Below, piece by piece: positions 50,123 to 54,145 of a stretch of 64,000 nucleotides of DNA; position 1 is the stretch's first letter, and each line of letters opens with the position of its first letter. The notes beneath the pieces were generated by a model, which saw nothing but the letters and a program-made list of their open reading frames with translations, was not told where the DNA came from and did not search any database. The stretch spans positions 352,001 to 416,000 of the forward strand of contig CAVYTU010000014.1 of the NCBI GenBank assembly GCA_963771465.1, given 5' to 3'. Position numbers and translations under genes: made by a program. This stretch comes from an uncultured delta proteobacterium. Lineage in GTDB: Bacteria; Desulfobacterota; Binatia; UBA9968.

Positions 50123-52786
50123 ATGGAACCCCAAGCCGACCTCATCCGCAGCATTCCGATCTTCTCCGCACTGTCGCGCGAGGATGTCGCCAAGGTGCTG
50201 GGTAAGATGGAAGAGATTACTTTTAGCACCGGCGCGACGATTTTTAGTCAGGGCGATCACGGCGACGCCTTTTACTTGATTCAATCCGGCGCGGTGCAAG
50301 TGGTCGTCGAAAGCGGCGCGGGCAACGCCGAGGTCGTCGCCATTCTCGGCGCCAAGGATTGGTTTGGCGAGATGGCACTGCTTTCCGGCGAGCCCCGTTC
50401 GGCGACCATTAACACGGTGAAAGAAACCACACTGTGGCGGCTCAGCCGCGAAGCTTGGGATGAACTGATCGATAAACATCCCACTTGGCTGCTCCAGTTC
50501 TGCGCGACCCTTAGCAAACGGCTCTCCTACGTCGACCGGCAATATTCAACCGGACGGGAAGCTTTTAATTCTCTCGCCGAGGAGTTTTACGGCTCGCGCA
50601 CGCCCGGCGAACGGCAATTTTTCCGCCACGCCTCACTGCTCGGCGCCATCGATGCGCAGAATTTCGATCGACTCTTTCGCACCGACGGGCTGACTCAATT
50701 GATTACCGATCTTGGCAATAGTCAGTTTCCGCTGATTCGCCATCTCGGTGACGGCAAGTACGAGCTGCATAGCTTCTTTAAGGATTTCTTGCGCGAAAAA
50801 CTAAATTCCATCGACGGCGCCGAAGCGATGCAGCGGCTCCATGCCGATTTTGCCGAGCGCTACGAAGCTCTCGGCGATTGGCCGCAAGCGTTGCATCACG
50901 CCGTGCACGGCCAAGATTGGTCGACCGTGACCCGTCAATTGACCGCGCAAGGTGAGCACCTGCTTGCCGACGCGCCGCTGTTGGTAAAGAACACGCTGGA
51001 GAGCGTTCCCCAAGAGCAACTCTTGAGCAGCCCCCGCTTGGTCAACTTGAAAAGCAACGTCTTGATCCAGCTCGGCGATATCGCCGGCGCCTATCGAACC
51101 TATCATCAGTTGTTGACGCAAAAGACCGCGGGAGCAATGGGCATGGATACCATTGTCGGCTATCGGCGCATGGCGGAAACTTTGGCGCAGCGAAAAGAAT
51201 ACGCCCAAGCCATCCATCAATTACGCGCCGCACTCAACGTGTTGGACCAAGATAACGCCATGACAGGAGATTTCTCTGAAGTTCCAACGGATATACCGCG
51301 GCTGCAGCCGACGGATGCGACGGCGCATGAGCAGCAGCGCGCCGACCGATCGGCCAACCGTTTGCGAACAACCATCGCTGCGCTGCGCTCGTCGGCGCTG
51401 TCAAAATGGTTCGGCGCGCTGGCCGGACTCGCGGCAGGCAGTTATCTCTGGTTCGGACAGCCCGACATCGGCCTCGATACGGCGGCGACGAAATTGCTCG
51501 GATTGATTACGGCAACCTTAACTTTTTGGGTCTTTCGTTCGCTGCCGGATTACGGCGTCGCGTTGATGTTCGCGATGATCATTGTCCTTACCAATTTGGA
51601 ATCGGCGCAAACGGTCATGGGCGGGTTCGCCAGCACGACATGGTTTATGACGCTTGGTGTCTTGGGCCTCGGTGCGGCAATCACCGGCTCGGGTTTATTT
51701 TACCGGTTGTCACTCCACTTGGTGCGCCTGTTTCCGCTGAGCTTTTACTGGCAGATCATCGCCACGGGTATCATGGGTGTCGTCGTCATGGCACTGATTC
51801 CGCAGCAGACCGCCCGCACGGTCATCACCAGCCAGATGCTGATTAATCTTTCCGAGAGCTTGGGTTACAAGACGCCGTCAAAGGCGTCCACCGGGCTATT
51901 CACGGCGAGTTTTCTCGGCTTGGGGCAGCTCGGTTTTTTGTTTCTGACCGGCTCGACGACGAGCTTGATCGCTTGGGGTCTGCTGCCGACAGATGTGCGG
52001 GAGCAGTTTACCTGGGGCTATTGGTTTCTCGCCGCGCTGCCGCCGACGCTGGTGGTCATCGTTATCATCCTAGGGAGCTCGATCATTCTCTTTCGGCCCG
52101 AATCGCAACCGAAGATTTCCTACACCATGGTGCAGACGCAATTAGAAATTTTGGGGCCGCTCTCGTCTAAAGAATGGATTAGCCTCGCGGTCCTTTGTTT
52201 CACGGTGGGTGGCTGGCTCACGACAGCGCATCACGGCATCGACAGCGCCTGGATCGCCATCATCGCGTTTTCGGTTTTGGTCAACACCGGCATTCTTGAC
52301 TGGAGTATGATGCGCAAGGGCATCGACTGGGAATTACTAATTCACATGGGCGTGACTCTAAGCATCCCGACGCTGTTGAAAGCGGCAAAGATCGATCAGT
52401 GGCTGGTCGACGTGATTTCACCGTTGATTCTGCCGTTCATGGACACCCCGGCATGGTTTTTCATCATCATCGCGCTGTTGACCTATGCGCTGAAATTAGT
52501 TTTCACCAGCTTCCTGGCCGTGGTCACGCTCTGCGTCGCGTTGCTGCCGTTGTCGATCGACGTTGGTATGAATCCATGGATTATCGCCATGATCATTCTC
52601 ATCGCCTCGGAAGTTTGGTTTTTTCCCTACCAGGTCGACTGGCACATGCTCGCCTACTCCACCACCGACGGCAAAGGATTTTTTTACCCGCTCATGTGCC
52701 GGGTAAATCCCATTTATGCCGTAGCCTACATCGCCGCGCTCGTTGCCGCGATTCCATACTGGCGTTATCTCGGTTTGATGAATTGA
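50123..52786 (+). CDS. Fusion: cNMP-binding domain, MalT-like winged-helix/TPR region, SLC13/DASS transporter
   Basis: IFSQGDHGDAFYLIQSG, FGEMALLSGEPRSA; YELHSFFKDFL..LHADFA..ALHHA; C-terminal multi-TM with LIPQQTAR, FLTGSTTSL, FTWGYWF, IDWELL, FFPYQ. Confidence 0.85.
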   Translation: MEPQADLIRSIPIFSALSREDVAKVLGKMEEITFSTGATIFSQGDHGDAFYLIQSGAVQVVVESGAGNAEVVAILGAKDWFGEMALLSGEPRSATINTVKETTLWRLSREAWDELIDKHPTWLLQFCATLSKRLSYVDRQYSTGREAFNSLAEEFYGSRTPGERQFFRHASLLGAIDAQNFDRLFRTDGLTQLITDLGNSQFPLIRHLGDGKYELHSFFKDFLREKLNSIDGAEAMQRLHADFAERYEALGDWPQALHHAVHGQDWSTVTRQLTAQGEHLLADAPLLVKNTLESVPQEQLLSSPRLVNLKSNVLIQLGDIAGAYRTYHQLLTQKTAGAMGMDTIVGYRRMAETLAQRKEYAQAIHQLRAALNVLDQDNAMTGDFSEVPTDIPRLQPTDATAHEQQRADRSANRLRTTIAALRSSALSKWFGALAGLAAGSYLWFGQPDIGLDTAATKLLGLITATLTFWVFRSLPDYGVALMFAMIIVLTNLESAQTVMGGFASTTWFMTLGVLGLGAAITGSGLFYRLSLHLVRLFPLSFYWQIIATGIMGVVVMALIPQQTARTVITSQMLINLSESLGYKTPSKASTGLFTASFLGLGQLGFLFLTGSTTSLIAWGLLPTDVREQFTWGYWFLAALPPTLVVIVIILGSSIILFRPESQPKISYTMVQTQLEILGPLSSKEWISLAVLCFTVGGWLTTAHHGIDSAWIAIIAFSVLVNTGILDWSMMRKGIDWELLIHMGVTLSIPTLLKAAKIDQWLVDVISPLILPFMDTPAWFFIIIALLTYALKLVFTSFLAVVTLCVALLPLSIDVGMNPWIIAMIILIASEVWFFPYQVDWHMLAYSTTDGKGFFYPLMCRVNPIYAVAYIAALVAAIPYWRYLGLMN

Positions 52787-53063
52787 CAACCGTTCGCTGC
52801 GTTCTCGGCGATCTCGTCCGAATCTCGTTATCAACCCTTGTCATAATCGTGACGACAGTTGCAGACCGCAGCAATCCCGTCGTCCGTGCGATTTTCAGTG
52901 GGAAAATTCACTGGGCACGGAGAAATTCAAGCGCATCCAGATCATCAACACCACCTCGTCGTCAATTTTAGAGAACTGAGCAGTAATAAAACGTCCTGAT
53001 AAATGGTCTTTGCGTTTGTTATCCCTACAACTCTTTGCTTGAGCTTCGATTCAACCTATTGAG

Positions 53064-53084
53064 TTTTACTTAGCGTGAGTAAAA
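53064..53084. promoter_or_regulatory. Palindromic putative operator TTTTACT-N7-AGTAAAA
   Basis: Perfect 7-bp inverted repeat 25 bp upstream of TTGACA; related TTTACT-N8-AGTAAA at 53200-53219. Confidence 0.45.
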
Positions 53085-53109
53085 TAATTTCTAAAATGAT
53101 ATTTTTTTC

Positions 53110-53139
53110 TTGACATACCATTTGTTGTGCCTTAATAAT
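53110..53139 (+). promoter_or_regulatory. Sigma70 promoter
   Basis: TTGACA 53110-53115, TAATAAT 53133-53139 (17-18 bp spacer), AT-rich UP-like tract upstream. Confidence 0.7.
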
Positions 53140-53254
53140 CGATCCAGCTACAAAATATGGGAGGGTTCCAGAAGTAAATCGTCTCCGCCTGAGTCATACT
53201 TTACTGCCTGTCAAGTAAAAGCCCGCCCGTGGAATTTTAAAAGGAGGTGCTCTT

Positions 53255-53302
53255 ATGGCTGCTAAGAAAAAAGCCAAGAAGAAAGCCAAAAAGAAAAAGT
53301 AA
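53255..53302 (+). CDS. 15-aa Lys/Ala microprotein MAAKKKAKKKAKKKK
   Basis: AAGGAGGT SD at 53241-53248, ATG 53255, TAA 53300-53302; own promoter and terminator; below the ORF-track cutoff. Confidence 0.75.
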   Translation: MAAKKKAKKKAKKKK

Positions 53303-53385
53303 CTATCTACTAGATGTGGGGTTGTGGTGGTGTTTTAAACCCTCCTTACTCTCAGGCGACAAGGTAACTGTTCTGGTTGCCTAAT

Positions 53386-53428
53386 ACACAGAGCCCTTCA
53401 AGCGTCAGCTTGAAGGGCTCTGTGTTTC
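53386..53428 (+). terminator. Intrinsic terminator-like hairpin
   Basis: Perfect 18-bp stem acacagagcccttcaagc / gcttgaagggctctgtgt, loop gtca, short T tail. Confidence 0.8.
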
Positions 53429-53563
53429 TGCCGCGTCCGCTTCACTTTTGAGTCATTGACTTCGCTGCACTTTCGCTCCTGACGCAACATCCGTTCAGTG
53501 TCCAGCTGTGGGTGAGCGCTCGGGTCGGCTCGGGAAGACTTAGTATTGCGTCGCTCCAATCAA

Positions 53564-54145
53564 ATGGTTAGAGTTATTGCCGTGAATGTATTGTTTCACC
53601 GTCACTCGCTGGCGTTGATTCTGGTGACCTTGAGCGTGGTATCGCTGAAGCCGGCGCCGGCGTTGACGCAGTCGAAGGTTGATTACAAAGCCGTACCGAT
53701 TCTTCAGGCGATGAAAGAAGTCGCTCCGACACCGGAGATCAATCTCGCCACGCCGGACGGTAAAAAACTTTCGCTCAAGGATTTCCGCGGTAAGATCGTC
53801 CTGCTCAACTTCTGGGCGAGCTGGTGCGTGCCCTGTCGCGAAGAAATGCCGGCGATGGAAAAACTCTATCAGGAATTTAAAGACAAAAACTTCGTTATCC
53901 TCGCGGTGGCCGTCAAAGACCGCAAACAAGATGCCGTCGACTTCGCTAAAGAGCTCAAGATCACCTACCCGATCGCTCTCGATCCTGACGCAAAAGTCGG
54001 TCAGGAGTACGGTGCCTGGGGACTGCCCGCTACCTACATCATCGGTCCCAAGGGCGAAGGCCTTGCTCGCGGTTGGGGGCCGGCCGAATGGTACGGCAAC
54101 GGTGCGAGAAAATTGATCAGAGATCTGGTCGACGGTAAACGATGA
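53564..54145 (+). CDS. TlpA/ResA-like thiol-disulfide oxidoreductase
   Basis: LLNFWASWCVPCREEMP, GLPATYII; start uncertain. Confidence 0.9.
   Translation: MVRVIAVNVLFHRHSLALILVTLSVVSLKPAPALTQSKVDYKAVPILQAMKEVAPTPEINLATPDGKKLSLKDFRGKIVLLNFWASWCVPCREEMPAMEKLYQEFKDKNFVILAVAVKDRKQDAVDFAKELKITYPIALDPDAKVGQEYGAWGLPATYIIGPKGEGLARGWGPAEWYGNGARKLIRDLVDGKR

Follow-up and report, generated by a model that had tools for sequence, protein, structure and literature searches.

Organization of the element

The window, that is, the whole 64,000-nucleotide stretch of DNA that was analyzed, carries on its plus strand an unannotated, single-copy small gene of uncultured soil bacteria, with an RNA of about 285 nt and a peptide of 15 amino acids; the features described in this section are given for the plus strand. 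A sigma-70-type promoter (TTGACA, 18 bases, AATAAT) is located at 53110–53139, shares 11 of 12 bases with the consensus and is kept throughout the order, and we infer that transcription begins near 53146. This promoter was also compared with the rRNA promoter, and the two were not similar. Immediately upstream, at 53091–53109, a box, CTAAAATG, followed by a T-rich run can be read in the window sequence, and the same YYAAAATG-N-T-rich order also precedes the −35 hexamer in distant families. In the window and in the promoters of loci L059–L078, the YYAAAATG box and T-rich run lie about 10 nt 5′ of the −35 hexamer and are kept despite the diverged leader. This box may be an UP element or the binding site of a regulator; a loose form of its pattern has two matches in the genome, which gives no sign of a regulon.

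The leader contains a near-invariant 5′ G-rich box, GGGAGGGTT (53159–53167), which is complementary to a downstream anti-Shine–Dalgarno (anti-SD) box, the 5′ strand CGCCTGAG of a long-range helix designated P1 (53186–53193), and a CCCGCCC box (53222–53228; CCCRCC in relatives), a possible upstream anti-SD that is paired with the Shine–Dalgarno (SD) sequence by RNAalifold. The SD sequence itself, AAGGAGGTG (53241–53249), is an exact 9-nt complement of CACCTCCTT at the 3′ end of the 16S rRNA of the same genome, and its GGAGG core is invariant in 49 class-wide sequences. The microORF MAAKKKAKKKAKKKK with its stop codon (53255–53302), recognized by codon-position variation and by retention of the ORF in relatives, is followed by a G/U-rich box, GTGGGGTTGTGGTGGTG (53316–53332), kept in the order, and by the anti-SD-like box AACCCTCCTTA (53338–53348), whose CCTC is invariant in 35 sequences and whose 11-mer occurs once in the genome. 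The 3′ strand of P1, CTCAGGCG, follows at 53351–53358; both strands are supported by the order and class-wide alignments and by RNAalifold.

Two hairpins close the gene. P3 (53362–53382) has a conserved GUUCU loop and eight pairs, with compensatory changes at several of them, and behind it lies a terminator-like, GC-rich hairpin of 18 bp followed by TTTCTG (53386–53425). The latter was not called by a scan for consensus terminators because its T run is short, and it is read as a terminator because of its fold and covarying stem. The 283-nt stretch as a whole folds with a minimum free energy of −98.1 kcal/mol (z = −4.96), a value that was as low in none of 200 shuffled sequences.

Coding evidence for the microORF

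The reading frame runs from ATG at 53255 to TAA at 53300–53302, and its product consists of 11 Lys, 3 Ala and 1 Met, i.e., it is a hydrophilic polycation without any hydrophobic stretch, in agreement with the preliminary description of this DNA, which had set the peptide apart from the hydrophobic type I toxins. Among 60 distinct aligned rows, the mean minor-allele fraction was 0.029, 0.030 and 0.244 at the first, second and third codon positions, respectively, and all 14 of the 14 third positions were variable. The AAR codons vary between A and G only at the third position, which preserves lysine, and the indels within the ORF are multiples of three, which preserves the frame. An intact Lys/Ala ORF of 12–19 aa was found in all 59 full-length distinct relatives, and in all 49 class-wide sequences the invariant GGAGG is followed by an ATG codon and a stop in the same frame. 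In the sister families, the ORF versions are 16–40 aa long; an SD-preceded K-rich ORF of this length, MAAKKKASKAKKKAPAKKGAAKKKK for example, was present in 37 of the 40 distant loci fetched, and no qualifying ORF was seen in the other three (L147–L149).

The minus strand of the window also has an open frame at 53194–53289, rich in Phe, Leu and Ala (MAFFLAFFLAAI...), which lies antisense to the Lys/Ala ORF and is wobble-aligned with it, AAR lysine codons standing opposite TTY phenylalanine codons. Of the 56 sequences in which the sense start was found, 53 have this hydrophobic frame open and in the same wobble register. The variation by codon position, taken by itself, thus leaves the choice of strand undecided, as it also fits a product of the type M/L-AFFLAFFLAAISTSF. 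The mirror ORF begins with TTG in 50 of 53 cases, an SD-like sequence precedes it in 0 of 53, and no sigma-70-like promoter was detected on the minus strand between 52700 and 53700; we give little weight to its being a real gene.

Long-range pairing between the untranslated regions

Each of the strings on which the preliminary description was built is present in its place: GGAGGGTT at 53160–53167, CCAGAA at 53168–53173, AAGGAGG at 53241–53247, AACCCTCCTT at 53338–53347 and TTCTGG at 53371–53376. In the window sequence alone, the best unbroken stem that joins the two UTRs is one of 9 bp, GGGAGGGTT/AACCCTCCT, which was equalled in 11 of 40 shuffles; stems found in the single sequence are thus without significance, and the case for pairing rests on the relatives. 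A comparison of the whole UTRs with shuffled ones by RNAduplex was abandoned, as it returned whole-length duplexes with uninformative z scores.

The relatives bear out the main helix that had been proposed, CGCCTGAG:CTCAGGCG, through order-wide pairing and compensatory changes in the sister families. Across the 60 distinct relatives within the order, P1 is paired in 99.1% of cells, with six of its eight pairs invariant and the outer pair changed from C-G to U-A in three sequences; because P1 is mostly invariant at this level, its support depends on the sister families. In the class-wide alignment (49 sequences, plain MAFFT), a P1 of 14 pairs has 76.5% of its cells paired, against 32–50% when the 3′ partner is slid by 1–3 columns; double changes occur at 9 of the 14 pairs, and the covariation score was reached by 7 of 500 shuffles. 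RNAalifold predicts P1 as the sole helix of this alignment, with compensatory changes at six of eight pairs, and ViennaRNA gives P1 a probability of 0.84–1.0. All eight core pairs are formed in 38 of the 49 sequences and at least seven in 44. Three of the five failures (L078, L134 and L142) have an uninterrupted helix of 9–10 bp a few bases away, a fourth (L143) was found by reading to have UGCCUGG/CCAGGCA together with CGAAGGGA/UCCCUUCG, and the fifth, L132, has none. Helices have been substituted in some loci, as by CUCGUGCGGAGGGA/UCCCUUCGCACGAG in L072 and by GCCUGAGGGA/UCCCUCAGGU in L078. In several sister families, a purine box inside the 5′ strand of P1 pairs with a CU-rich box inside the 3′ strand, so the “anti-SD” box there simply extends P1.

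Within the order, RNAalifold returns P1, an SD-proximal CC.CC/GG.GG pairing, P3 and the terminator, with compensatory changes at 16 of 37 pairs, nearly all of them in P3 and the terminator (in P3, for example, A-U 24/G-C 10 and G-C 24/A-U 7). Comparison of the relatives establishes, as a predicted fold, the pairing of the 5′ and 3′ UTRs in the long-range P1 around the SD–ORF domain, followed by P3 and the terminator. An extra outer helix, in which the 5′ arm of the terminator pairs with the G-rich leader, was obtained when RNAalifold was applied to family f12 and was dismissed as an artefact because these extracts lacked the 3′ arm of the terminator.

An outer helix, CCAGAA:TTCTGG, had been suggested along with the main one, and it did not survive the comparison. 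Its 5′ side varies, two of its pairs being open in 25 of 52 and 21 of 44 cells, and TTCTGG belongs to P3, where it forms the loop and the 3′ side of the covarying stem. The nesting of pairings around the ORF, also suggested previously, holds for P1, which encloses the SD and the ORF, but not for the pairing of the 5′ box with the anti-SD box: from the order of the positions (53160 < 53186 < 53338 < 53351), the latter crosses the main helix and would have to be a pseudoknot or an alternative fold.

The preliminary description had also given the anti-SD box two alternative partners. Both pairings are possible and conserved, as the box (53338–53345) can pair with the 5′ box in 97.3% of cells and with the SD in 95.2%, but neither is singled out by covariation: the 5′ box, the SD and the anti-SD box are all near-invariant, so covariation cannot choose among them. 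The candidate partners, moreover, number at least four, namely the 5′ GGGAGGG, the SD, the GGUGG box and, indirectly, the CCCRCC box, which competes for the SD. No covariation was detected for SD:anti-SD, CCRCC:GGUGG, CCRCC:SD or GGUGG:anti-SD, the last two being conserved to the same degree as the others, and none of these interior pairings is therefore preferred. The pairing of the CCCGCCC box with the SD GGAGG in RNAalifold contains a central R-A mismatch, and ViennaRNA places the anti-SD CCUCC mainly on the adjacent GGUGG (p ≈ 0.5–0.7) and on the SD with p ≈ 0.1. Of the translational switch proposed earlier, the conservation of the boxes thus stands, but none of the candidate pairings covaries and SD:anti-SD has a low probability in the fold; an SD/anti-SD switch is possible as judged from these boxes.

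A further 3′ UTR motif, GCTAGGCACGTA(G/A), was seen in most of the related loci of the L073 type (L073, L077, L130, L131, L133, L139–L141 and L144–L146), among which L131 has ATAGGCACGTAG; it is missing from the order to which the window belongs.

Distribution and genomic neighbours

The element is present once in the 6.9-Mb genome. A set of 60 genomes of near relatives gave full-length matches of 68–92% identity in 34 of 36 members of family f1 and 5 of 5 members of f2; two “matches” in f3 (E = 0.014 and 0.4) were regarded as noise. Over the order, blastn found the element in 78 of 123 genomes (75 of 89 in f1; 2 of 5 in f2, with a shorter query; 0 of 28 in f3). A covariance model built from 35 sequences and applied at a threshold of E ≤ 0.01 matched 65 of the 151 genomes sampled from the class. 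These tallies take in four genomes flagged as unpublished (G005, G035, G085 and G088), the loci of which were left out of the alignments. Outside the class, 2 of 146 genomes had a match to the SD/ORF part only; two pattern hits, in Rhodoluna and Microbispora, where the covariance model found no match, were attributed to chance. Additionally, family f3 (genus g9) was without the element in 28 genomes by blastn, in eight by the covariance model and in five complete genomes by a loose SD-ATG-Lys pattern. Since f3 is a family of the same order, the element is not indispensable.

Weak class-wide matches confined to model positions 112–142 came from tandem AAG-rich repeats of other genes and were left out of the counts of the element. 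Genomes G156, G164, G229 and G250 have three to four such matches in tandem at a spacing of about 45–90 nt, perhaps AAG-rich repeats of Lys-rich repeat proteins. In G003, the element was found with equal score on two contigs, C25 and C26, as a result of real duplication or of redundancy in the assembly (contamination 7%).

The contigs that carry the element are labelled Candidatus Binatia, Deltaproteobacteria, Syntrophobacter or Thermodesulfobacteriota. Three further loci, L080, L107 and L119, are labelled Chloroflexota, Verrucomicrobiia and Candidatus Eisenbacteria and have the element next to the same tlpA/ccdA neighbours, with 70–90% protein identity, and in L080 and L107 also folE and pepA; these taxonomic labels look inconsistent with those of the other carriers.

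In the window, the genes downstream encode a TlpA-type redoxin and CcdA, and 30 of 35 loci of the order have tlpA and/or ccdA downstream in the same orientation, a count that leaves out two loci of the genomes flagged as unpublished. The upstream gene differs among the loci of the order. In the window, it is an 887-aa gene at 50123–52786 on the plus strand, in which a cyclic-nucleotide-binding domain is fused to a permease of the Na/sulfate-symporter type, and which adjoins the element in only some relatives. At ten distant loci, an alpha/beta hydrolase was found downstream in six and enolase or DivIC upstream in several, and at least one of the ten (L154) has a PAPS reductase gene next to the element in convergent orientation. 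As the neighbours differ in the distant loci, the element is an independent gene and not the leader of one operon.

Representation in RNA libraries and databases

Of the words sampled from a 461-nt query, 40–44% were present in six metatranscriptome runs from five studies, and DNA runs from soil metagenomes also contained the query. Contigs of 179–209 nt from three of the runs, soil metatranscriptomes of three studies, cover 53169–53363 with 0–1 differences, two of these runs being small (12.8 and 15.2 million letters), and a fourth run that was examined contained relatives' versions of the element. The flanks 52950–53165 and 53382–53750 were without contig cover in runs X16, X18 and X19, a lack that proves nothing. 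These contigs are suggestive of transcription of the element and are not proof of transcription, strand or ends. The contig ends in the three libraries agree to about 10 nt, at 53169–53178 and 53354–53363, just outside P1, and in X16 there is an adapter-like loose end at 53363; they hint, weakly at best, that the RNA is processed to a P1-closed form of about 190 nt.

The suspicion that the RNA motif is undescribed agrees with the search of Rfam 15, in which no family reached its gathering score in the window or in 14 homologous loci: positions 52900–53600 gave six matches of 16.5–21.4 bits against thresholds of 50–97, and the 14 loci gave three, all under threshold. Pfam-A and NCBIfam returned no family at E ≤ 10 for six homologues of 25–40 aa, a result that refers to these longer homologues, the 15-aa peptide itself being too short for profile tools. 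None of nine homologous peptides was present by exact look-up among 15 billion proteins, a search for homologues with a 40-aa member among proteins of 22–70 aa found none, and neither such a peptide nor such an RNA was found in the open literature, the part covered here.

The gene is real: it is a previously undescribed, class-wide microprotein gene with a conserved 5′–3′ closing helix, and it is missed by gene callers and family libraries although it is present in single copy and kept across the class.

Interpretation

The region 53110–53430 on the plus strand is probably a stand-alone mRNA for a microprotein, closed by a helix between its 5′ and 3′ ends, rather than a type I toxin or a leader. 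The strong promoter would drive transcription of about 285 nt up to the hairpin terminator, and the perfect 9-nt SD with the ORF of 15 codons would yield the Lys/Ala polycationic microprotein. On a purely conjectural level, P1 would act as the closing stem that stabilizes the RNA and perhaps sets its mature ends. The CU-rich anti-SD box beside the 3′ strand of P1 may tune the access of ribosomes to the SD, with the G-rich decoys (5′ GGGAGGG and 3′ GGUGG) competing with the SD for the anti-SD, such that initiation would be metered. As a variant, a ribosome terminating at 53300 could cover the beginning of the G/U box and free the anti-SD, which would then close the SD. If the SD and anti-SD boxes do form such a switch, it would be a new design of cis-regulatory RNA. 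The peptide, again as pure conjecture, might be a housekeeping polycation that binds nucleic acids or ribosomes.

A more far-reaching version of the microprotein reading, which we think rather unlikely, would make the Lys/Ala peptide an unrecognized, abundant polycation of the ribosome or nucleoid of this class, a bacterial counterpart of Thx, eL41 or protamine-like peptides, and its mRNA a stable, P1-closed, trimmed form of about 190 nt. Translation of this form would be metered by a closed circuit of the SD, two SD-like decoys and two anti-SD boxes, into which the peptide or ribosomes at termination might feed back.

Stable RNAs typically have a closing stem that joins their 5′ and 3′ parts, and the ARN motif is a binding site of the Hfq type. 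On a rival view, the element functions as an abundant regulatory or protein-binding RNA with an incidental or secondary ORF (a dual-function type), its A/G-rich tract of 45 nt serving, for example, as an (A-R-N)n site of the Hfq type. The strongly conserved UTRs, including the boxes outside the ORF, and the short contigs of small RNA libraries that cover the element speak for such a function, which we nevertheless hold to be improbable: the SD is invariant and the start and stop codons are intact class-wide, changes in length preserve the frame, and the AAR third positions are occupied by A or G only, where an ARN site would allow any base. An RNA function of a more special kind, as a mimic of the 16S rRNA 3′ end that titrates a ribosome-maturation factor or as an autoregulatory binding site of the peptide, was raised by the resemblance of ACCCTCCTTA to the 16S 3′ end CACCTCCTTT and by the occurrence of ACAAGGTA and CGCCCGT in the 3′ domain of the genome's own 16S rRNA, and we rate it as very improbable. 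The words shared between the 280 nt of the element and the 1558 nt of the rRNA are expected by chance (by arithmetic, about 26 7-mers and about seven 8-mers), the pieces occur in a different order, and ACAAGGTA is not retained by the more remote members, whose hairpin stem covaries. With only 7–8-mers in common, at chance level and not colinear, mimicry of 16S rRNA was dropped.

The remaining two explanations appear to us extremely improbable. A module resembling type I toxin-antitoxin systems, with either the sense peptide as toxin or a minus-strand toxin M/L-AFFLAFFLAAISTSF to which the plus-strand RNA would be antisense, would account for the 5′–3′ pairing and anti-SD, which are described for the hok and aapA1 mRNAs, and for the antisense frame being open, hydrophobic and wobble-aligned in nearly all sequences. 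Type I modules are usually patchy and multi-copy; the element is single-copy and inherited with conserved neighbours across the order, and class-wide. The sense peptide, moreover, lacks a hydrophobic stretch, and the mirror frame has TTG for a “start” in most sequences, no SD-like sequence upstream and no promoter-like site on its strand between 52700 and 53700. The 11 lysines among 15 codons, the terminator-like hairpin that follows them and the recurrence of tlpA and/or ccdA downstream would fit control of these following genes by a lysine-sensing leader peptide (attenuator). However, a TlpA-type redoxin and CcdA are not lysine metabolism, the neighbour differs in the sister families (alpha/beta hydrolase or, in L154, the convergent PAPS reductase), and no antiterminator structure was found in the folds that would rival the terminator stem.

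Comparison with known systems

Thx, bS22, bL37, eL41 and the tails of Hc-type histone-like proteins are examples of very small basic ribosomal or nucleoid proteins. The peptide described here shares with them its tiny size, an extreme Lys/Arg content and strong expression signals, a likeness of size and composition, as the peptide is too short and of too low complexity for sequence comparison. It adds a new family of extreme polycationic microproteins, for which roles at the ribosome, in the nucleoid or in RNA chaperoning are all possible.

Small proteins are also encoded by dual-function small RNAs, such as SgrS/SgrT, RNAIII/hld and SR1/SR1P. As in these systems, the element is a short structured transcript with its own terminator in which a microORF and non-coding parts are conserved, but it has no known or predicted pairing target, and its non-coding boxes look self-complementary, i.e., cis-acting, and not like seed regions. 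The pairing of 5′ and 3′ parts around a short internal reading frame is reminiscent of tmRNA, an abundant small RNA, whereas the tRNA-like domain of tmRNA is missing here and the ORF, unlike a tmRNA tag ORF, has an SD and AUG. The single tmRNA that ARAGORN detected in the genome (tag ADNFEYQLAA) lies on a different contig, and the program reported none at this site.

The closest architectural parallel is offered by hok/Sok and by aapA1/IsoA1 of Helicobacter pylori, whose mRNAs combine 5′–3′ pairing with an anti-SD (PMC5416894, PMC6733600, PMC9841398). Like them, the element is a small mRNA (about 200–400 nt) with a tiny ORF, a long-distance 5′–3′ interaction around the SD and ORF and a CU-rich anti-SD in the 3′ part. 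Unlike hok and aapA1, it encodes a hydrophilic polycation and not a membrane peptide, it is single-copy, vertically inherited and class-wide, and, compared with their antisense antitoxins, it has no promoter-like site on the minus strand in 52700–53700. The analogy with type I toxins drawn in the preliminary description thus applies to the RNA architecture, but membership in such a family fails on the type of peptide and the single-copy, vertical distribution, and apparently also on the antisense partner. The element thereby provides a natural example of a 5′UTR–3′UTR closing helix around a microORF beyond toxin-antitoxin systems.
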